29,533 nt of DNA from positions 1 to 29,533 of the IMG/VR virus record IMGVR_UViG_3300012952_000084. One strand, 5' to 3'. Shown here in pieces: positions 4,343 through 29,532 of the stretch. Origin of the DNA: a virus. Lineage: Duplodnaviria; Caudoviricetes. Every line of letters begins with the position of its first letter. Position 1 is the stretch's first letter. The notes beneath the pieces were generated by a model that was given only the letters and a program-made list of their open reading frames with translations, was not told the DNA's origin and did not search any database. Made by a program: the position numbers and the translations under genes.

Positions 4343-5914
4343 TTAAATTACCTGGATGATGGCATGATTTGTAGTCAACAGTGTGCTCGCAGCGGAAGTT
4401 GCATTTTGCAGCGCGCAACGAGTAACTTTGACCGGATCAATAATCCCCGCTTCGATCAAATTTACGATCTCGCCTGTGGAAAAGTTATATCCGTGATGTA
4501 TATCTGCTTCTGTCAAGTTGTTGACAATTATGTCTGGCGACTCGCCGCAGTTCGTTGCCATCTGGCGAAGGGGTGCCGAGACAGCTTTCTTAATAATCTC
4601 CACCCCAAGTTGCTGCTGTTCGTTCTCAACCTCAACCTCGATACTATTAGACGCGCGGATGATGGCCACGCCTCCCCCGGGAACAATGCCCTCTAACTGA
4701 GCGGACCTGACGGCCTCTAGCGCATCTTCGATCCTGTGCTTTTTCTCGATCATTTCGATCTCAGTTGGCGCCCCGACATGGATAATTGCTACACCGGATG
4801 CCAGTCTAGAAATTCTTTCCTGAATTCTTTCGCACTCATACAAAGAGTCGGTGTTGGCCAATTCTTGATTTAGACCCTCAATACGCGTTTCTACCGCGTC
4901 ATAATCTCCAGAACCTCCAACGACGGTAGTCCTATTCTTCGTTATCTCGATCGATCGACATCGACCTAGGTGTTCCAATTTAACATCACGAACTCGAAGG
5001 TCCGATGTGCGCGTAACAAATGTTGCACCGGTAGAAAGTGCAAGATCGTTTAAAATGTTCCTGCGCTCTTCTCCGTAGCGTGGCGCTTTTATAGACACAA
5101 CTTTCAGCGTGCCGCGCATTGAATTCATAATTAAAGCAGCCAAAGCTTGGCCCTCGACATTATCACTAACAATGACCAAGGGTCTAGATTCGCGAGACAT
5201 CACCTCTAATACGGGCAACAATTCATCAACCGATGAAATTCCGTGATCTGTCACTAGCAAATAGCAGTCTTCGTGCCTCACTACCCCTCTGCGCTCATCC
5301 GTGATGAACGAGGGGGACATGTACCCAGAATCGAACTGAAAGCCCTCTACGATGTCTAGAGAGGTCTCAATCGACCTCGCCTCTTCGACCTTGATGGCGC
5401 CATCTTTTCCCACAGAATCGACCGCCATAGCGACAAGCTTGCCAATTGTTTTATCCCCGTTGGCAGAAATTGTCGCAACATGCTCAATGTCAACGGTACT
5501 GGATATTGGCTTGGCCATTTCATCCAGATTGTCCACGATCGCTTCAACTGCCTTATCCATCCCTCGCTTAAGTTCGACGGGTGATGCGCCGGCCGTGAGA
5601 TATGCTTGTGCCTGAGTCAGTATGGCCCGGGCCAAAACTGTTGCTGTGGTTGTCCCGTCGCCAGCCGTATTATTAGTTTCAGCTGATGCTTGTTTAATAA
5701 TCTCGGCGCCAGCATTTTCCATGGGGTCTTCGAGAGTTACAAACTGCGCGACCGTGACCCCGTCTTTTGTAATAATTGGGCGTTTGCCGCTCTCTTGTAA
5801 AATAACATTTCGACCTTTTGGGCCTAGGGTGGCAGCAACATTGTCTGCCAAAATGTTAACACCTTTTAAGATTCTCTGGTTCAAGGATGTACCAGAGTCA
5901 TATTTTTTTGTCAA
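4343..5914 (-). CDS. groEL: Chaperonin GroEL (Cpn60), phage type
   Basis: TLGPKGRN, ITKDGVTVA, AGDGTTTATVLA, ATISANGD, GIVPGGG, GIIDPVKV. TTG start with GAGGTG RBS. No C-terminal GGM tail. Confidence 0.97.
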   Translation of the reverse strand: MTKKYDSGTSLNQRILKGVNILADNVAATLGPKGRNVILQESGKRPIITKDGVTVAQFVTLEDPMENAGAEIIKQASAETNNTAGDGTTTATVLARAILTQAQAYLTAGASPVELKRGMDKAVEAIVDNLDEMAKPISSTVDIEHVATISANGDKTIGKLVAMAVDSVGKDGAIKVEEARSIETSLDIVEGFQFDSGYMSPSFITDERRGVVRHEDCYLLVTDHGISSVDELLPVLEVMSRESRPLVIVSDNVEGQALAALIMNSMRGTLKVVSIKAPRYGEERRNILNDLALSTGATFVTRTSDLRVRDVKLEHLGRCRSIEITKNRTTVVGGSGDYDAVETRIEGLNQELANTDSLYECERIQERISRLASGVAIIHVGAPTEIEMIEKKHRIEDALEAVRSAQLEGIVPGGGVAIIRASNSIEVEVENEQQQLGVEIIKKAVSAPLRQMATNCGESPDIIVNNLTEADIHHGYNFSTGEIVNLIEAGIIDPVKVTRCALQNATSAASTLLTTNHAIIQVI

Positions 5915-5939: not shown

Positions 5940-7706
5940 TTATTCTTTAGTGGCCGCGGCCTGTTGCATATCTTGTTCGTGGTATTCTTGGGCGCCGGCC
6001 TTAATCTCGTCTGCGGTGCTGGCTGCCTCAAGCGCAGAGCTTTTATTCCCGCCAATAAAATATCCATTAATCTGTTGCGATAGCGTTTGCACTTTCTTGA
6101 ACATATCATAAATTTTCTGGTTTAAGATTTCAGCGTATTCTACAGCTAGTGCGCGCACAGCTGCCTTTCCTACATATATTTGACCAATATACCCGAAGCC
6201 GTCTTGTTCCCATCTTTTTTGTCGATAGTATCTGGGGCTTACTACAAACTGTGTTTCTTCTGCGGCACCAGTATATCCAGAAGATTTAGCGATAAGATTC
6301 CAAAAGTCTATTGGGTTTTCTTCGTTTTCTGTTAATTTCGATTTTAATATTTTAACCGATGTGCCGTAGTCTAACCACTCTACGGTAGAAACACGCGCTT
6401 TTCCAGTTTTAGGATCAATATCTTTCTTATCCGGGGTAGTTTTCTGCGTATATGTTGTAGAGGCAATGTCTTTTCTTCTCGGGTCTGCTGGTGGAAGCTC
6501 TGCGTACCTAATGGGTTCGCCGTCCGCATTGACCAGTTCAAGTTTTTTTGGATTCTTTTCAGTGGGGCGGAGTGTGGCGTCGTCGAGCAGCTCTCTAGCA
6601 TATTCAGGAACATAGTTCTTTACAATCTTTCGATATGCCCATGCCGTACCGGGATCGAAACCATTATTACGACCTGCGAGCATTCTCTTCTGATCCTCTG
6701 CAGAAATGGGATCATAAACCTCTTGCTCTGGCTGTACGGCAGGATCTTCATCTGGCTGGCCAAATTCCTCTTTCGGCAGCAGCAACAATTTGGCGTTGTG
6801 CTTATTAGTTACTAAAGCCTCAAAGAATGTTTTAGCAGTAAAGTCAAACTGGAAAAACCTAATAGTTTCGGGCTCCCCTCCCTCGGCGACCTCTTCAGCC
6901 GAAAGCTTTTTTGTAGATTCCATGTCTCTGAACGACTTCAAAACAACAACATAAGTCATTGTTCCGGCTGCGCCTGCTTGACCAACATAGTGCGGGTTAA
7001 CCACCTCTTCACCTGTTTCTGAATCTGTGTATGTCTTTTCAGATCTCCGTGCGCCGGTAGACTGTGCTGTCGGATCAATAAAATGGTCGACCAAGTCTTT
7101 GTAGCTTCCGTGAACATTTCCCGTAGAGCCTGCGGATCCGGCGCCTGTGAGAAGCTTTAGACTAATCGGATTATCGTCTGCGTCGATCAAATCTTGGATT
7201 CCGGCGGTGCCTGCGGGTATTTGAGTGCCGCTTAACAGCGCTGATAGGAATCCTTCAAATGTAAAGCCGGCCGCAGAAGCATTAAAGTGAAGCATGATGT
7301 TGGTTAGCGTGTCGAGAAGCACGATGTGCGTGAGGATCTCTGAAATATCATCAGTTTGAGGCTTCTCTTCTAGAAACTCGGAAATCTTCTCAACCTTTTC
7401 TTTGAGTGTTGAACCGCCGGCGGAGCCCACAAGTCTTGTCAACAGACTCTGGATTATTTCTCGGTCTTCTGAGCCTTGTTGTCCCCACATCTTTTCGGAA
7501 ATTCGAATTCGGGGTATGAAGATTTGAAGATCCTCCTTTTTGTCGGAAGGGTCTTCTTCTGCTGGCGCCACCTGCTCTTGTTCTACAATAAGGCCAGTGG
7601 TAGACTCCATGATTTCTTCAACGAGCTTGAACATATCGTTGATATTTATCTTTTCGGTAGCCGGCTCAAAATACTCGTTTAATAAATTTTGTAGTTCTCT
7701 GTCCAT
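5940..7706 (-). CDS. Uncharacterised 588-aa protein, possible PD-(D/E)xK-like nuclease core, probable virion protein
   Basis: GFTFEGFL...IQDLID...ISLKLL; N-terminal LLNE/IMES/LIVEQ; late-type motif upstream. Confidence 0.5.
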   Translation of the reverse strand: MDRELQNLLNEYFEPATEKININDMFKLVEEIMESTTGLIVEQEQVAPAEEDPSDKKEDLQIFIPRIRISEKMWGQQGSEDREIIQSLLTRLVGSAGGSTLKEKVEKISEFLEEKPQTDDISEILTHIVLLDTLTNIMLHFNASAAGFTFEGFLSALLSGTQIPAGTAGIQDLIDADDNPISLKLLTGAGSAGSTGNVHGSYKDLVDHFIDPTAQSTGARRSEKTYTDSETGEEVVNPHYVGQAGAAGTMTYVVVLKSFRDMESTKKLSAEEVAEGGEPETIRFFQFDFTAKTFFEALVTNKHNAKLLLLPKEEFGQPDEDPAVQPEQEVYDPISAEDQKRMLAGRNNGFDPGTAWAYRKIVKNYVPEYARELLDDATLRPTEKNPKKLELVNADGEPIRYAELPPADPRRKDIASTTYTQKTTPDKKDIDPKTGKARVSTVEWLDYGTSVKILKSKLTENEENPIDFWNLIAKSSGYTGAAEETQFVVSPRYYRQKRWEQDGFGYIGQIYVGKAAVRALAVEYAEILNQKIYDMFKKVQTLSQQINGYFIGGNKSSALEAASTADEIKAGAQEYHEQDMQQAAATKE

Positions 7707-7713
7707 GTTGATA

Positions 7714-7722
7714 ATAATTAGT
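7714..7722 (-). promoter_or_regulatory. Candidate late promoter ACTAATTAT
   Basis: 7 nt upstream of ATG 7706, with no RBS in between. Confidence 0.5.
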
Positions 7723-8660: not shown

Positions 8661-9281
8661 CTAAACCACCTCATCAGCAATGCCATATTCGACGGCCTCT
8701 TCTGCGGTCAGGTACACATTGACATTGCGGCCAATAAGCTTTTTAATAAGCCTCTTGGTCATATCAGTTTCCGACACAATCGCGTCTATATATCGCTCTT
8801 GCAGCCAGCGGATTTCATCCATTTCATTTTCTAAATTGTGGATGGCGCCGATGTGCCCCCCGGTCACACCATGAATCATGGCTCGACAATTCTTTGCGAT
8901 CCGGCGCTCACCCTTGGTTCCTGCAGCCAACAGTAATACTCCTGCTGACATAACTTTTCCGATCGCAACAGTGTGAATCGGGCAGGTTTGTTTAATTAAT
9001 CTCATCGAGTCGTAAATTGCAAACATATCATGAGCGTCGCCGCCCGGTGTAGAAATCATGAACTCGATCGGCAAGTCTACAGGTTGCTGCCCCTGCATGA
9101 CGAAGCCGCTTTCGCGTAGCATGATAAACGCCCCAATGACTTCGGACATCCGCTCTTCGTTAACTTCTCCAAACAAACCGACCGTGCGTAGATCATTTCC
9201 GGTTTGTGCGAGTGTCACGGTACCAGAAGTCTCAGCTTCTTCCTGTTGCTCGACTGACTCGTCTTGTTCACTGATTTTCAT
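8661..9281 (-). CDS. clpP: ClpP-like protease, paralog 1
   Basis: ISTPGG, VMSAG (Ser), MIHG (His), YLTAEEAVEYGIAD. Asn at the expected catalytic Asp position. Confidence 0.9.
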   Translation of the reverse strand: MKISEQDESVEQQEEAETSGTVTLAQTGNDLRTVGLFGEVNEERMSEVIGAFIMLRESGFVMQGQQPVDLPIEFMISTPGGDAHDMFAIYDSMRLIKQTCPIHTVAIGKVMSAGVLLLAAGTKGERRIAKNCRAMIHGVTGGHIGAIHNLENEMDEIRWLQERYIDAIVSETDMTKRLIKKLIGRNVNVYLTAEEAVEYGIADEVV

Positions 9282-9745: not shown

Positions 9746-9774
9746 AATATAACACTATTTCTTTGTAATGTCAA
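9746..9774 (-). promoter_or_regulatory. Sigma70-type promoter
   Basis: TTGACA (9774-9769), 17 nt, TATATT (9751-9746), with TGn extension. Confidence 0.6.
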
Positions 9775-10513
9775 GCAATCTTGCTGCTACTCGACGAGTT
9801 AAATTATCGAGCACAGATTCTTCTAACGGAAGCGCACTTCCGGGATGCGACCCCATGTGGGTTTGGCTGGCTTTTGCTTTGCCTCCGCCAAAATGGTGCT
9901 CGCCGGCACTGCTTTTTTGATTATCGTCAGAAGAAGAACCCTCTTCCGAGTTCCCACCCTTAGACAACATATCTTCGCCGCCAGCAATGTGCTTGTGTGC
10001 CTCTAAAAGCTGTGCGATCTGGTTTCTGACATAAGCGCGCAACTTGTTCTCGTAAACGCCGGCAGAATCTCTCATGGCTGGATCCTCAAGCATGTCAGGG
10101 CCTTCTGCGTCAAGCTCCATCGGCAACTCTTCATCGCCAACATCGCTCAAATCGGGCATGCCGGCTTCTTCGCCCTCTTCTCCAGAAACACTAAGCTGAA
10201 CGCCGGATTGTTGAACTTCTGGATGCCCTTGGATTGCATCGACAATTGCGACAACAAGACCTTCGACATCAAAATCGCCCGGGCCTGCGGGAGATGCTTC
10301 GCCGCCCACATCAAGCGCGGCCGCATCAACGGCAGGATCTGCTAAGGGATCGGCACCAACAGGGTCGGCATCTTCGTCTTCTATCATACCGTCATCTAGT
10401 TGTTCACCTATGGATCGACGAGTATCGATAAAAGGATTGGTGAGCGGCTCTACAGACGCTAGCTTCATAAATCTTCGGATTTGGTTTTCCGATAAAAGTG
10501 TTTTCTTGCTCAT
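9755..10513 (-). CDS. Acidic low-complexity protein, probable internal head/scaffold-like virion protein
   Basis: MSKKTLLSENQIRRFMKLA leader, D/E/A/G-rich body, repeated [LIV]xE sites, amphipathic C-terminal LTRRVAARLL. AGGAG RBS. Confidence 0.6.
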   Translation of the reverse strand: MSKKTLLSENQIRRFMKLASVEPLTNPFIDTRRSIGEQLDDGMIEDEDADPVGADPLADPAVDAAALDVGGEASPAGPGDFDVEGLVVAIVDAIQGHPEVQQSGVQLSVSGEEGEEAGMPDLSDVGDEELPMELDAEGPDMLEDPAMRDSAGVYENKLRAYVRNQIAQLLEAHKHIAGGEDMLSKGGNSEEGSSSDDNQKSSAGEHHFGGGKAKASQTHMGSHPGSALPLEESVLDNLTRRVAARLLDITKK

Positions 10514-10554: not shown

Positions 10555-10563
10555 ATAAATAGT
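10555..10563 (-). promoter_or_regulatory. Candidate late promoter ACTATTTAT
   Basis: Identical to the copy at 223-231; intergenic. Confidence 0.5.
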
Positions 10564-14183: not shown

Positions 14184-14786
14184 TCACTCAAAGCTAAAGT
14201 CAACATCGACAGAAAAAACAAATTTAGGCACCCTCAACTCGGTGGCCAAGTTGTGCTGTAGGCATTCTTCCGCATCTAAAAACCAATCTGCATGGCCCTT
14301 TTCGTGGATATGCTTGAGGAAGTAGTCAGACCGCTTGCCGCAGTTTTTGGCCATCATCTTATAGACCTTTTGGTTCAACCTTTCTGCTTCTGCAGCATCG
14401 GCCTTAATTTCTTCAATTTTCCCCCAGGCTCCGGTACTGACATCGTGAATCATCACTGTCGCGTCCGGATCCATGTACCTCATGCCTTTCGAGCCAAACG
14501 AAAACAGGATGGCGCCACAAGACATTGCTTTACCTTGCACGATCGTAGCCACGGGAAGCTCCGCATGTTTAATATCACCGACCATGGACATTAAACTATA
14601 TACCTGTCCGCCATAAGAGTCAATGACAACAGGAATGACTGGTTGGCCTGTGCTGTGGGCCAAGCTCATACTATGAGAAAAGGCTTTTGCCGAAGTTTCA
14701 TCAAACTTGTTAACTCGTATGATAACCGGCTCTTTGCTTAGTTCGTACTTTTGTATAAGTGGGTGCTTTTTGTAAATCGTTTTCAT
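14184..14786 (-). CDS. clpP: ClpP-like protease, paralog 2
   Basis: IDSYGG, AMSCG (Ser), MIHD (His), ADWFLDAEE (Asp); triad intact. Confidence 0.9.
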   Translation of the reverse strand: MKTIYKKHPLIQKYELSKEPVIIRVNKFDETSAKAFSHSMSLAHSTGQPVIPVVIDSYGGQVYSLMSMVGDIKHAELPVATIVQGKAMSCGAILFSFGSKGMRYMDPDATVMIHDVSTGAWGKIEEIKADAAEAERLNQKVYKMMAKNCGKRSDYFLKHIHEKGHADWFLDAEECLQHNLATELRVPKFVFSVDVDFSFE

Positions 14787-24044: not shown

Positions 24045-27000
24045 TCAGAAAGACATCAATTTGTCGTAAGAATCGACTTTCAAGTTAGATAACTTTTCAA
24101 GATACCCGTTTCGGCGCAACACTTTGAATGTTATATTTTCGGATGAATATTCGCCGTTTTCTTCTAATCCGCATTTGCGAAATTTCTGTATCTTTTCCTT
24201 TAGTCTTCCTACATTGTCCATTGCTTTTTTGTATTCTTGTTCTTGAAACTGTTCTTCGATCTTATCAATCTGGGTCATGATATGGTTGGCCTTAAGTGTA
24301 ACACTTGCCGAATCGACTGTAAAGTCTTTTCTAAAGGGTTCTACTATCCATTGATCGTGTAGAACCGAATATACCCCGGTTGAGTGATGCGGCTCATTAG
24401 AGTCTTGGACATATATCTCTACTTCATAGCCGTTTATCTCAATATTGTGTCTCCTATTCCACGCGGCGCGCTTGGAATTCATCATGGCCTGTGTTATTTC
24501 TTCATCACCAGGCAAAAGATTAAAATCAACCAATATGTGCAGATCTACATCAGAATATTGCGACCAATTAAAGTTTGCCAACGATCCGGTAAATGTTATA
24601 TCATCGATTTCGACTGTTGGCAGATCTAGCCCAACCCAAAATTGCTTCGCGATCATAATTAACCTTTCTCGAACTTGCGGCAATAACACTTTGGATGGTG
24701 CCCAAACATTCGGTTCGAGATGATCGTTTATTTTAAAGCTTGACAAATCGATCGACTCATTTAAAATCTCTTTATTCGCATGTTCGGACCACACATCAAG
24801 TTGTTCTCTCAGGCTCAGATCCGATTGACGCCGTGCTCCTCCGGGGAGGCGGCCTTGTCCAGTATCGGTGTTGTAGTACGGATTATATCTCGGATCGAGC
24901 CCTTGGAGCGGGTCATTAAATTGTTGTGGTACCGTGTGAATGTCCATACGCTGGGCTCGCCAATCACCGTCCGGTGGAGGCGGTGTCCAGCCTGCGGGCA
25001 TTGGCATCGTCGAGGCATCTATGTTGATATTTGGGCCGGTGAGTTCGGGCCATGGCTGACTCTGGCCCGTGTATGCAAAGGGCCCCAGGTCTTGCATATA
25101 TCTCCCATAATCAAGATAGTTCTCTTGAGACTGCAGTGGGGTAAACCCCTGCTCTGTTCCGTACACACCTCCCTGTCCTGTTCGCCATGCGTCTTGTCGC
25201 TGCTGGGCCAACTGGTACGCGGCGGCGGCCGGGCCGGTTTCTTCCATGGGTCGGGCAAGGATCGACTGATCTGCTAAAAACTGGGCGGCTTCGGGACTGA
25301 ATTCGTGGAAGCCCATTGCGCTGTGGTATTCATCTGGTGTGAGATTGGTCCGTGGGGCGCCCGTGGTCGAGCCGCCATATGGAGTAACTCGGCCCGGGCT
25401 ATAAACTGTGGGCGAAGATGTGGAATCGGGGCTAGGCTGAGCATTAGTGCTGCTGGGAGCTTGCCCTAAAAGGCCCTGACTCATATTATTGGCGGCATCG
25501 GCGTTATATGCGGCTCGATCTGGCCGGAAAGAGGGATATGCATTTCTAATGTCGGCGGTGGCCTGTTTCGCGGGCTCAAGACCAGTTGCAACTGTCTGGG
25601 TCGCACCTGCTAAGTTCGTGGCCGCCGTTGATGCATCCGAGTAAGCTTGGTTATAATCGTGTCTTCTTTGTACGCGGTCGGCGCGCCTTTGATCGGTACG
25701 ATAAGATGACCATGGGTTAACTGTTCGATTAACTCCTGCCCAAAACCCGGATCCATGCTCGGACGGCAAAGGTGTGTTTTCTATTCCCGGGACCCTTACC
25801 ATGTCGTGCTGGCTAGCCAATTGTTCATCGCTCAAACGAGGATCAAATTGTGGATTTGCCTGCATCCAGCTTTCTTCTTTTTCGGTGAATTCGCCTCGTC
25901 CTTGCCTGTTCCAGCGCATAGATCCTTGCAGATCTGTCCTCGCGTCTTCAAGTGTATCTTCTAAAGTACCGCGTGTTCGGCTGGGAAGAGTAGAATCTGC
26001 TATCCCGAAATCTTTCTGGAGGTCGTCACGACGATCCCTAAAAGCCTCTCTTTCGGTTTTGTCTTGCCGATCCCATGGGGTATCTTCATCTTCGTACCGA
26101 TCTTTCCACTCTATGGCTTGAGAACCAGACTCATCGCGGTCTTCTTCATCGACATTGGGGGCCGCCCAGGTTGCGGCTTGCTCTAAAAGAAGTTGAGTAG
26201 CGCGCACAATTGCTTCGAATATACCTCTTTGAAATAGTCCTAAATCTACAATTACAAAATCGTTGGTGCTGGGGCGCATCATAACATTTTTTATATGCAC
26301 ATCTTTCGGTCTCCAATTCTGATCTTGCATAAAAAATCTCATAGCAGCCATTAGGTTTTGCGCCTCTGGGAATAAGTCTTCTACTTTTTTGAGAGTCGGC
26401 CCTGCCCACGATCCACGATCAGTTTCTTCGTCACCCGGCTCTGGCTGGTGAACTGGAACAACTTGTTTATCAAAGTAATATAAAATATCATCTACTAGTG
26501 CTTTTTCAAAAGAACTTTTTACTGCTGGACTTTGAAAATCTAGTTGTTTAGATATCTCATCGGTCACAGTATAAATAACACTTTGAACATCTCCTCCGTG
26601 TGATATTTTGGTTACGGCATTTATAACAGACCCTATAATTTGTTCACGATTAACCAAAAACTCACGCATTTGATTTAATATTCGATTATTGTTAATAACA
26701 TACTTTGCTATTTCTGCTACCGCCTCTGGGTTTTTTAAAATCTTCTGTTTTTTAATGGATGCAGTAGGCGCATCTTGCGCCGCAAATAATTCTTGCGCCA
26801 CTTTCTTTGGCAAAGGTTTGAGCAATTCCATAAATATGATGTTGTAGTTATCTGGGCCGGCCACGATTTCTTTAACATCTGGTAGGTATTTTGCATACTG
26901 TGTCGGCATGGAGGGTTTGTTTTTCATCGCGAACTCATAATTTTCTGTTTCACGATTACTGTCTTTTACGACTTTGGCCGCCAGTCTTTCGCCACTCGCA

Positions 27001-27206
27001 CCTCTTTGAACTTCGTATACGACGCCAAAGGCGCCGCGGCCAAGCTCTCGCAAAACAGAAAAGCCCCCCTCTTCCAGAAACGCTTTCCATGATTGTTCCA
27101 CTTTTTTTCTATCAAGGTGATCGGGCGTCGACATCGTGTCGGGCCAAGTGTTTTCAGCCAAAAACGACTTCCATGAGTTAAATATTTTTCTATTGCTGTC
27201 ATTCAT
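24045..27206 (-). CDS. Multidomain protein: protein kinase-like domain, low-complexity middle region, Pol-beta-superfamily nucleotidyltransferase
   Basis: Kinase: LGRGAFGVVY, AAKVV, E, IFMELL, DVHIKNVM, VIVDLG. NTase: FTGSLANFNWSQYSDVDLHILVD...GYEVEIYVQD. Confidence 0.85.
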   Translation of the reverse strand: MNDSNRKIFNSWKSFLAENTWPDTMSTPDHLDRKKVEQSWKAFLEEGGFSVLRELGRGAFGVVYEVQRGASGERLAAKVVKDSNRETENYEFAMKNKPSMPTQYAKYLPDVKEIVAGPDNYNIIFMELLKPLPKKVAQELFAAQDAPTASIKKQKILKNPEAVAEIAKYVINNNRILNQMREFLVNREQIIGSVINAVTKISHGGDVQSVIYTVTDEISKQLDFQSPAVKSSFEKALVDDILYYFDKQVVPVHQPEPGDEETDRGSWAGPTLKKVEDLFPEAQNLMAAMRFFMQDQNWRPKDVHIKNVMMRPSTNDFVIVDLGLFQRGIFEAIVRATQLLLEQAATWAAPNVDEEDRDESGSQAIEWKDRYEDEDTPWDRQDKTEREAFRDRRDDLQKDFGIADSTLPSRTRGTLEDTLEDARTDLQGSMRWNRQGRGEFTEKEESWMQANPQFDPRLSDEQLASQHDMVRVPGIENTPLPSEHGSGFWAGVNRTVNPWSSYRTDQRRADRVQRRHDYNQAYSDASTAATNLAGATQTVATGLEPAKQATADIRNAYPSFRPDRAAYNADAANNMSQGLLGQAPSSTNAQPSPDSTSSPTVYSPGRVTPYGGSTTGAPRTNLTPDEYHSAMGFHEFSPEAAQFLADQSILARPMEETGPAAAAYQLAQQRQDAWRTGQGGVYGTEQGFTPLQSQENYLDYGRYMQDLGPFAYTGQSQPWPELTGPNINIDASTMPMPAGWTPPPPDGDWRAQRMDIHTVPQQFNDPLQGLDPRYNPYYNTDTGQGRLPGGARRQSDLSLREQLDVWSEHANKEILNESIDLSSFKINDHLEPNVWAPSKVLLPQVRERLIMIAKQFWVGLDLPTVEIDDITFTGSLANFNWSQYSDVDLHILVDFNLLPGDEEITQAMMNSKRAAWNRRHNIEINGYEVEIYVQDSNEPHHSTGVYSVLHDQWIVEPFRKDFTVDSASVTLKANHIMTQIDKIEEQFQEQEYKKAMDNVGRLKEKIQKFRKCGLEENGEYSSENITFKVLRRNGYLEKLSNLKVDSYDKLMSF

Positions 27207-27628
27207 TGCTTGAGGGCTCTCTTAATCGCGTTTAGGTACTTCGGAGGCAAATCGTAACTATCCAAGTCCGCCGCATCTACTAATAAATAGTCTGTATGTT
27301 CATCGCTGAGTGATATATCTTTATTCTTTGGCATAGAAGCTTTAAAATATGTGTCCCTTCCTTGCGAATACAGCTTTTCTGGCCTTCTTATTATTAAGCC
27401 TGTCTCTTCCCACACTTCTCTCTGCAAGCCGTCTTGCATATCTTCGCCCTCGATCAGGTGGCCGCCCGGCAAATCCCACTCACCGGGGTGCTTCTCTAGA
27501 TTTTCGGATCTCTTAACAATTAAAACTTTATTTTCATCGTATATGACCGCTTTGGCTATCTTGTCGCTATCCACTCTCTTTTCACCCTCGCTAATATATT
27601 TTCGCCAATTTTCAAGCAAAAATTTCAT
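27203..27628 (-). CDS. Nudix hydrolase with N-terminal MKFLLENWRKYISE leader
   Basis: Nudix box GGHLIEGEDMQDGLQREVWEETGL; LSDEH; ATGA overlap with the kinase gene. Confidence 0.92.
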   Translation of the reverse strand: MKFLLENWRKYISEGEKRVDSDKIAKAVIYDENKVLIVKRSENLEKHPGEWDLPGGHLIEGEDMQDGLQREVWEETGLIIRRPEKLYSQGRDTYFKASMPKNKDISLSDEHTDYLLVDAADLDSYDLPPKYLNAIKRALKQ

Positions 27629-27646
27629 CTTCCATCTTCCTCTTTA

Positions 27647-27675
27647 ATTATTGCAGATTTGCGTCTTAATGTCAA
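27647..27675 (-). promoter_or_regulatory. Sigma70-type promoter
   Basis: TTGACA (27675-27670), 17 nt, AATAAT (27652-27647). Confidence 0.55.
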
Positions 27676-27747
27676 AATCTCAAAAATTTGCCCGCGAAAA
27701 AATCTGAGCAATTGCGAATATTGGATCCGCGCTATCTCACAGATATT

Positions 27748-28186: not shown

Positions 28187-28396
28187 TTATTCTGGCTCCG
28201 CAGTGTCTGTTCGCCTCAGGCTTCCAGCCTCGGGCAGGTCTTCCATCTCTTCTATCTCTTCATCCTCGGGGAATCCAATTTCATCATACTCATATCGTTC
28301 AAATTCCGGGACAGATGTCGGTTCTATAGTCTTACTTTTTGGCCCACATGCAAGGGCAAGAAGAACAATAATAAATAACCACAGTCTATAGTTCAT
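28187..28396 (-). CDS. Small acidic putative lipoprotein
   Basis: MNYR, then hydrophobic LWLFIIVLLALA, then C (lipobox-like); ATGA overlap with the upstream gene. Confidence 0.6.
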   Translation of the reverse strand: MNYRLWLFIIVLLALACGPKSKTIEPTSVPEFERYEYDEIGFPEDEEIEEMEDLPEAGSLRRTDTAEPE

Positions 28397-29532
28397 TTTA
28401 AAAAACTCCTCCATTTCTTATACATTCTGTTCACATTTCTATTTTCTTTCAACTCTTGTTCCGATGAAGTTTCTTGTTGAGACTCTTGCGCTTCGGACTC
28501 TGTTTCATCCCACAACTGTTCGATAGGTTCTGGACCTTTCATTCCAGACGGCATTCGCAGTCTCTGCATTGTCTGCAGGGTACCCAAAAAGATTTCGCGA
28601 AGTTTATCTTCATCATCAACAGTACCGGGTTGCCAGACTGCCGCTTGAAATAGGTCTATCACTTCATCAGGGTCTTCATAGCTAACTACCAACGCAAATT
28701 CATAATTTACACCATTATCAAGAGGCATAGCTCCGGTTCCCTGATCATATATGTCTACATTATACTCTGTTTGAACCTCTTTTCTTGCATCTGATAGCAT
28801 CTTCTTCCGAATCGCAAGTCTAAAATCACGAGAGTCTAACACTTGTTGTAAAACCTGTGGATTCCATTGAAGTTCTCTGGTGTCGAAGAAAAATTCTACT
28901 TGGCCTACTATAATGGTAGCCTCGTCCGGATCCCACTTGTCATCAAGCTCAAGCGTCCATTCATATGGATCGATATCTCCGTTTGAGATCTCCATGGCCA
29001 TGTTTAAAAACTTGCTGCCAACCATAGCACCTTCCATCTTATAATGTCTGGTAAGATAATGTTTAACTCCATCGTACATGTCATCAATAGCATTGACAGC
29101 CACACCAAAATCCTCGACCTCTTCTGGATCTGCAACGAACGACATGCCGTTCCACTCTGGTATATACTCGGGGCTGATACGGAAGCCCAAAGATACTGTC
29201 TGGCTGTTGCGTCGAAGCCAAGCGGAGCCCTCATCGGCCCATGCCCAACCTAGGTCATTAAGTTCTGATACTGCCCAGCGCGCAGAGGTTGAGGCAGGAA
29301 GCTTGTTCCACTCTTCTATACCCCATTGGATATTCATATATGCTTTGAGCATGATGATAACTTGACCTTCGTCGTCCTCTACATCGACTTGAATTTCAGC
29401 AGCTTGGTAACGACGGTTCCATTCTTCAGCTATCTCGTCGGCGCGCCTTTGTGCATCTTCAATTTGGCCGGCGTTGAGCATAGAAAGATCTATCTCATCC
29501 TCTGCAGTTGCGTCCTGACCGACCTGTCCATC
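28393..29532 (-). CDS. C-terminal part of a large acidic protein (start outside the window)
   Basis: Frame stays open from 29481 to the window end (DGQVGQDATAEDEIDLSM...); ends LKENRNVNRMYKKWRSFLK. Confidence 0.8.
   Translation of the reverse strand, partial: DGQVGQDATAEDEIDLSMLNAGQIEDAQRRADEIAEEWNRRYQAAEIQVDVEDDEGQVIIMLKAYMNIQWGIEEWNKLPASTSARWAVSELNDLGWAWADEGSAWLRRNSQTVSLGFRISPEYIPEWNGMSFVADPEEVEDFGVAVNAIDDMYDGVKHYLTRHYKMEGAMVGSKFLNMAMEISNGDIDPYEWTLELDDKWDPDEATIIVGQVEFFFDTRELQWNPQVLQQVLDSRDFRLAIRKKMLSDARKEVQTEYNVDIYDQGTGAMPLDNGVNYEFALVVSYEDPDEVIDLFQAAVWQPGTVDDEDKLREIFLGTLQTMQRLRMPSGMKGPEPIEQLWDETESEAQESQQETSSEQELKENRNVNRMYKKWRSFLK

Follow-up and report, generated by a model that had tools for sequence, protein, structure and literature searches.

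We study a single open reading frame (ORF) carried by a 29.5-kb fragment of a marine T4-like phage, positions 1 to 29,533 of IMG/VR record IMGVR_UViG_3300012952_000084; this whole stretch is referred to as the window. The window encodes DnaE, ribonucleotide reductase (RNR), DnaB, GroEL and two ClpP, and its sequence is present in marine and seawater metagenome runs. The ORF (P0001; 24045..27206 on the minus strand, as are all genes and motifs placed in the window below) is a single open frame of 1,053 amino acids (aa) that joins a protein-kinase-like domain, a predicted disordered module and a C-terminal nucleotidyltransferase (NTase). An earlier interpretation made from the letters alone, which we call the sequence-only reading, had described the same anatomy with a low-complexity middle of about 460 aa, and catalytic residues, composition and fold matches all agree with it. 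Pfam and PHROGs searches on P0001 find the kinase and phrog_36119, the NTase, as the sole domains.

Such a chain could arise from an assembly chimera or an overlooked stop codon, an explanation to which one might be drawn since the GC content of the middle part differs and no listed contig piece covers the gene end to end. Its probability is nevertheless negligible, because a divergent allele (P0002/L070) has the identical fusion architecture and an intact frame at 91% DNA identity, because the fusion's protein cluster holds three full-length members of 1,051 aa (the window's own protein not counted), and because contigs in each of two other runs, X2 and X3, bridge both joints. In one X5 contig, a weak hint, the linker loses two bases and gains two others at a distance of 12 nt, with the frame kept. 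The fusion ORF is genuine.

Domains and joints of the fusion

The kinase domain occupies residues 47-331 (26214..27068) and has no C-terminal subdomain. Judged by alignment, its catalytic residues are intact: G56/G58/G61, K78, E86, D302-x-H304-x-x-N307 and D321 are kept in at least 90% of 62 aligned relatives, and these supply the marks of the protein-kinase-like superfamily (Gly loop, ATP-binding Lys, helix-C Glu, catalytic Asp/Asn and Mg-binding Asp). The part of the predicted model (pLDDT 86) that matches protein kinases extends over about 140 residues (Z 9-10), N-lobe to DFG-equivalent, and sequence and fold matches alike are nearly all Ser/Thr/Tyr protein kinases. The missing subdomain is a genuine loss in that stand-alone kinase genes stop just past DLGLF, where the fold alignment ends too; the domain's end at IFE331 is the native stop point of many of these relatives. 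Ahead of the catalytic loop lies a helical insertion (about residues 142-283; 26358..26783) which is swapped as a block between alleles: it shares 53-55% identity with that of P0002, compared with 94-95% in the flanking kinase parts, and 81-90% with that of the L004 kinase. This exchange is what is expected of a substrate-recognition part under conflict, the role that we infer for it. The insertion of P0002, for its part, resembles those of G005 and P0128 at 83-88%, and outside the insertion the gene is 94-100% alike (window compared with L070, L004 and L013). Searches for the kinase in cultured phages and GTDB genomes gave no match; one copy binned in a Gammaproteobacteria metagenome-assembled genome was not counted as host evidence.

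The sequence-only reading had drawn on T7 gp0.7. Both are phage proteins of protein-kinase fold with a possible use in host takeover or anti-defence (PMC13645617), but homology is ruled out on motifs, as the fusion's family has an invariant DLG where gp0.7 has DPV and is without the shut-off domain, and its predicted route is virion delivery. T7 is therefore an analogy only.

The NTase domain (residues 818-1053; 24048..24755) is a Pol-beta-superfamily nucleotidyltransferase followed by a C-terminal helical bundle. Here too the alignment indicates intact catalytic residues, with G874-S875-x10-D886-x-D888 and E930 invariant across 41 aligned members, 33 of which match NTP_transf_2. These members come from the alignment that we call A3; A2 had given a noisy 820-position profile with spurious PDB matches only and was set aside. 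The model (pLDDT 93) resembles Pol-beta NTases (2rff, Z 7.1, rmsd 4.1, 99 aligned), and VIA structure searches yielded helical bundles but no close structure. The family is very common, with an estimated 5,400 or so IMG/VR stretches, 45 of 50,697 phage records, and members in Lak, Molly, Cr30 and the cluster C cyanophages.

What the two enzymes might act on can be approached from these folds. The kinase's nearest folds speak for protein substrates, as does a likeness of the NTase to the protein AMPylase DrrA, which is the best PDB match of its profile though a weak one (E 0.018, GS-DxD core only); Pfam SidM_N stays under its cut-off in both proteins checked and appears in 12 of the 41 members at E up to 0.05. 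The enzymes might instead, after the packaging and cutting discussed below, act on small molecules or RNA such as antibiotics, nucleotide signals or tRNA ends. The top Foldseek matches of the NTase are AAD(9)/ANT, CdnE and FAM46 (E 8e-4 and weaker, TM about 0.25), the D-x-H-x-x-N loop of the kinase resembles that of a phage S-CREM2 kinase annotated as APH/ChoK-like, and NUDIX and 5'-nucleotidase partners of the NTase exist. With the kinase matches pointing almost uniformly to protein kinases and DrrA heading the NTase profile, we consider such targets possible but improbable.

Between the enzymes, residues 346-795 (24822..26171) form a 450-aa module predicted to be disordered. It is polar, Pro-rich and GC-rich, and its composition sets it apart (ILVFWYC residues 18% versus 31-34%; GC 55% versus 39-40%). 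A comparison with the Atlas gave no usable match.

The feature that ties these parts together is the distribution of the tripeptide Leu/Ile-x-Glu ([LI]xE), the cleavage signature of the T4 prohead protease gp21 (PMC9026906). The fusion has 11 such sites, and six of them stand as pairs at three joints: E18 and E46, E331 and E342, E801 and E817. One more lies within the kinase, four within the NTase and none in the linker, an absence that is not significant given the roughly 1.8 sites expected there from the protein's site frequencies. The first joint opens with an N-terminal leader, W-x-x-F-L-x-E (residues 7-18; 27153..27188), a predicted head-targeting propeptide ending at E18, which outscores all 4,347 control windows on a profile built from 121 leaders of non-kinase, non-NTase genes. 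A second leader-like copy (residues 35-46; 27069..27104), with a weak profile score equalled by 0.14% of control windows, runs to E46 directly ahead of the kinase fold. At the post-kinase joint (26181..26222) the predicted cut sites E331 and E342 are kept in P0002 despite altered neighbours. The pre-NTase joint (residues 799-817; 24756..24812) holds the predicted cut sites E801 and E817; compared by eye, it lines up with the leader at the N-terminus of a stand-alone NTase from a related phage, G005. Three 20-aa windows at the domain borders contain five sites (P=1.4e-4, 50,000 shuffles), in line with the boundary clusters described by the sequence-only reading; these windows were fixed after the site list was known, which makes the family-wide test described below the stronger one.

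Split relatives and the probable origin of the fusion

G005 (205.5 kb, 100% complete) shows the two enzymes apart. Its kinase (324 aa) and NTase (259 aa) are separate genes with an ATGA overlap, in a gene order matching that of the window (thioesterase-NUDIX-...-kinase-NTase-DnaB-RNR). Each starts with a leader whose last residues form a hydrophobic-x-Glu site, and the kinase terminates at the same IFE as the kinase of the fusion. The genes between thioesterase and DnaB vary, and most of them bear a leader; in the window they include a NUDIX hydrolase directly upstream of the fusion (27203..27628) which carries the full leader and overlaps the fusion start by ATGA.

Separate, adjacent kinase and NTase genes are also found in L080-L082. 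We examined 118 kinase loci (38 viral and 80 metagenomic, many of them short or redundant, 117 with a profile match): the kinase is fused to the NTase at two, one being the window's own contig, abuts it at four, and has it a few genes further on at another two. Among kinase relatives of 181-578 aa, 61 in number and 60 after omission of one with 15% coverage, 55 begin with the leader L-L-x-E-N-W-R-x-[FY]-L-x-E as read by eye, and the other five start later or are fragments. Only three longer kinase proteins were found. One of these, P0318 (1,478 aa), is an independent multi-domain chain. Its central kinase is preceded by a different GS-DxD-like stretch, and [LI]xE sites cluster where the joints appear to be and around the kinase.

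The nearest NTases either are split from the kinase or have a leader and a disordered cargo ahead of them. Of the cargos in this leader-cargo-NTase form, those of P0007 and P0006 resemble the linker of the fusion most (0 and 1 of 300 local shuffles score as high), followed by P0003-P0005 (3, 7 and 9 of 300); P0008 is not above shuffles, and a profile built from the P0003-P0007 cargo found nothing for the linker. The likeness is weak and suggests a common origin of the linker and the P0003-P0007 cargo. In the NTase tree the fused, split and leader-cargo forms fall in one clade (99/98) within which their order is left open (91/30), so that the view of the fusion as derived rests on its rarity.

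Most simply, then, the fusion is a recent joining of two cargo genes. Because the kinase end and the NTase leader of the split relatives coincide with the boundary sites, these sites are in large part ends and leaders inherited from stand-alone genes. Since a protease site stands at the start, and often at the end, of such cargo genes, losing the stop codon between two of them would yield a ready-cut polyprotein, and this would account for the readiness with which the NTase joins unrelated partners. At one further locus (L135:986-1706) IscU-like and IscA-like genes, identified by sequence reading, stand between the kinase and a leader-cargo-NTase gene.

Predicted protease sites at domain borders across the family

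Fusions of the NTase to unrelated partners make it possible to ask how [LI]xE is distributed at borders with partners other than the kinase. There are 294 matches of 579-1,843 aa, of which 120 were seen (among NTase relatives overall, the best 150 of 3,926 matches), and Pfam identifies partners as diverse as NUDIX, GNAT, amidase, M23 peptidase, poly(A) polymerase, GDSL and 5'-nucleotidase (39 proteins). The border set comprises 146 NTase proteins, taken as 50%-identity representatives. An N-border was scored for [LI]xE within the 18 aa ahead of the domain, and a C-border for [LI]xE within the 10 aa after it, where at least 60 aa follow.

Sites are found at 47 of 56 internal N-borders (background 0.19) and 53 of 76 internal C-borders (background 0.09). 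With one vote per cluster of related flanks the values are 31/35 and 39/52, over backgrounds of 22% and 8%. The same count for [LI]xD (4/35 and 1/52) and [LI]xK (6/35 and 8/52) shows no enrichment. A second C-border site, at +3 to +12 so that the domain's own last residue is excluded, is present in 40/76 cases (background 0.09), and on the kinase side 17 of 20 distinct long tails have [LIV]xE within their first 20 aa. On sequence grounds the enrichment at borders is clade-wide and matches the T4 gp21 signature. Homologous domains do occur alone or with other partners in relatives, with LxE alongside, as seen in the split genes, the unrelated partners and the border counts.

Proposed packaging and processing, and the alternatives

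A gp21-type protease (PF03420) accompanies the family. It is encoded in four of five kinase-bearing records (3/3 complete ones) and 15 of 17 large NTase-bearing records (5/5 complete); by completeness, in 8/8 records at least 90% complete and 11/14 partial ones; and in 2/4 fragments of a separate set and 3/3 cultured phages. The search in G001, a record 51% complete, gave no match. Read by eye, the proteases of G005-G007 and G009 retain the His, Ser and Asp motifs; the G005 gene lies at 72634-73254. Genes in the scaffold position, directly ahead of the major capsid gene in G005-G007, have 3.5-4.6 sites per 100 aa, compared with 0.6-1.8 in seven replication and metabolic proteins of the window, or two to four times the site density of replication proteins.

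Virion data exist for the cultured cyanophage S-CREM2, whose ORF156 is an NTase homologue at 30% identity and is among the 52 reported virion proteins, with six peptides (PMC10665884 Table 3). In that phage, [LI]xE occurs within the first 20 aa of 9 of 13 non-structural virion proteins (those outside the structural region) and of 13 of 83 undetected genes (p=1.5e-4), the latter being a control of 83 from about 168 undetected annotated genes, with one 26-aa gene dropped. Within the structural region it is found in 0/15 hypothetical or lysin proteins and 5/24 structural proteins. Another S-CREM2 virion protein, the kinase ORF14 (L237:10579-12846), has a leader, about 390 aa of low complexity and a site at E403 just ahead of the kinase fold; its relation to the kinase of the fusion is not detectable (score 2.7, shuffle maximum 3.2).

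From these comparisons we think it probable that the fusion is a head-packed protein from which the prohead protease releases the kinase, the disordered piece and the NTase. The N-terminal leader would very likely load the chain into the prohead, as the T4 capsid-targeting sequence does, and the gp21-type protease would cut unfolded joints after Leu/Ile-x-Glu and spare buried sites. The predicted cuts, to which we give good though not the highest confidence, are E18/E46, E331/E342 and E801/E817, and they would release a kinase of about 285 aa, a middle of about 460 aa and an NTase of about 236 aa. Whether the pieces are then ejected with the DNA, as T4 Alt is, to phosphorylate and nucleotidylate what would most likely be host proteins in the first minutes of infection, we regard as evenly balanced. 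The sequence-only reading had proposed two released effectors. Its assignment of sites to the domain borders stands, but because the 450-aa middle has no site, cutting at every joint gives three pieces. Its head packaging and prohead-protease cutting gain comparative support from the border enrichment with its controls, the gp21-type protease and the virion homologue, while injection and the substrates are argued by analogy.

Several observations weigh against this picture. Within its 29.5 kb the window has no head genes, and the kinase family has no cultured or virion-tested member. Four [LI]xE sites inside the NTase would have to escape cutting, and the leader profile, which is over-trained, misses the pre-NTase leader remnant. 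Borders are somewhat Glu-rich overall (other-x-E at 31/35 versus 0.71 and 36/52 versus 0.46), and Glu at +2 past the NTase is not clearly more frequent in long tails (46/76) than in short ones (19/45; p=0.06). Of the 13 S-CREM2 non-structural virion proteins, four have no site; the S-CREM2 leader is shorter, its NTase homologue distant and its virion kinase of no detectable kinship. In phage SPN3US, finally, about 80% of the head proteins stay uncut (PMC10052503).

One alternative that these points invite is an unpackaged enzyme of the infection stage, in which the leader serves chaperone or ClpP binding or translation and the sites are a by-product of acidic, amphipathic linkers. The gene does lie amid replication and metabolism genes, beside DnaB and RNR, in a window encoding two ClpP and GroEL, and the S-CREM2 authors caution that regulatory proteins may co-purify with virions (PMC10665884). 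Against it, the Asp and Lys controls are without enrichment, sites are dense in scaffold-position genes, and site presence tracks virion detection in S-CREM2. A strand-biased candidate late motif, picked by eye before the structural genes of G005 (30 copies on the coding strand versus 1 on the other), also precedes that phage's leader-gene run. We take an unpackaged enzyme to be improbable, much as we do small-molecule or RNA targets.

A second alternative accepts packaging and has only the N-terminal leader trimmed, with the internal sites vestigial and the kinase and NTase left tethered by the disordered module. It would predict internal sites at the places where, in split relatives, the kinase stops and the leader of the NTase lies, as is the case, and in a fusion both rare (2/118 loci) and furnished with inherited sites there may have been little time for site loss, so that the sites could indeed be vestigial; moreover, 13 of the 14 mapped cuts in SPN3US merely remove N-terminal propeptides (PMC10052503). 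Three observations argue the other way: the extra sites E342 and E801 flank cargo and persist in P0002, P0003-P0008 and P0183 despite changed neighbours; the sites fall in stretches predicted to be unfolded; and the enrichment extends over 35 and 52 unrelated flank clusters. Trimming of the leader alone is in our judgement unlikely, while remaining the more serious of these two alternatives to cutting at every joint.

This candidate late-promoter motif is itself of limited help for the fusion. A weak copy picked by eye (27283..27291), 85 nt upstream of the fusion start and within the NUDIX gene, is kept in L070. Since the motif count in the window is within chance (5 versus 1.86 expected; 6 of 100 shuffles as high), it gives a weak hint of late expression of the fusion gene. 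Further copies lie at 223-231, 7714-7722 and 10555-10563, shortly before the ORFs at 1-195, 5940-7706 and 9755-10513. In G005, proteins of 1,066-1,938 aa follow the candidate motif at 145670-150910, 177451-180651 and 182056-187872, the first with a leader; these three are likely to be further head polyproteins.

By analogy, the best reading of cutting at every joint is a chain that would act as T4 Alt and the internal proteins do and that has the build of a polyvalent protein, as a variant with predicted T4-type processing. With T4 (PMC9026906) it shares a short N-terminal propeptide ending at L/I-x-E (E18 in the fusion), as in the capsid-targeting sequence, internal proteins and Alt; relatives with a gp21-type protease and a site-rich scaffold; and a modifying enzyme as predicted cargo. 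T4 Alt is, moreover, cut at both ends. The differences are that T4 cuts trim terminal propeptides or fragment the scaffold, whereas the fusion's sites separate folded enzymes, and that the leader of the fusion's clade exceeds the T4 one in length and has an invariant Trp. Polyvalent proteins (Iyer et al. 2017, PMC5512222) likewise place several effector domains on one chain with variable architecture and predicted packaging, and include kinases without a C-terminal subdomain and Pol-beta NTases. The fusion, however, is without MuF, ArdC-N or an in-cis peptidase, its predicted processing being in trans by the prohead protease, and its NTase has an added helical bundle. By that paper's wording, the polyvalent kinase signatures (a Glu before strand 2, a Gln in the last N-lobe strand and a His-Asp insert) are absent from it. 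S-CREM2 (PMC10665884) offers an NTase homologue in the virion and, in ORF14, a virion kinase of similar layout, although as separate genes, listed as hypothetical or APH-like, and with no detectable relation between ORF14 and the kinase of the fusion.

Gp21-type sites as joints between enzyme domains, or a leader of this kind, were not described in the titles and abstract openings searched, which left subscription literature mostly uncovered. If the proposed cutting is correct, T4-type prohead proteases process enzyme polyproteins, beyond propeptide trimming and scaffold clearance, and the leader together with Leu/Ile-x-Glu joints would reveal injected cargo and domain borders directly from uncultured phage genomes. 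Such joints could also serve for loading several enzymes into engineered heads, and the cultured phages S-CREM2 and S-CRM01 make the NTase, a common family without known function, testable. We tentatively extend the idea, with less confidence than in the cutting itself, to a large group of aquatic T4-like phages, in which the gp21 propeptide site may act as a universal joint allowing fusion of any head cargo to any other, with the prohead protease as processor of the polyproteins. In the phage studied here it would free a disordered effector, a protein AMPylase and a truncated kinase whose specificity insert can be swapped, both enzymes being undescribed, and all three would be injected.

Some other features of the window deserve mention. 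Both ClpP genes (8661-9281 and 14184-14786) and GroEL (4343-5914) fall within its 29 kb, and G005 shares the window's gene order at least over the GroEL-amidase-ClpP run. Before the NUDIX gene, positions 27596-27707 have a depth of 65-98, compared with about 5-10, and many unrelated X3-X5 contigs match only there, which suggests an element common to many phages; the corresponding place in G005 has an AT-rich stretch resembling it. The last 25 aa of the ORF at 28393-29481 contain LxE and then a leader-like W-x-x-F-L stretch, an ending shared by its relatives in L004, L070 and L075 and possibly a C-terminal targeting propeptide.

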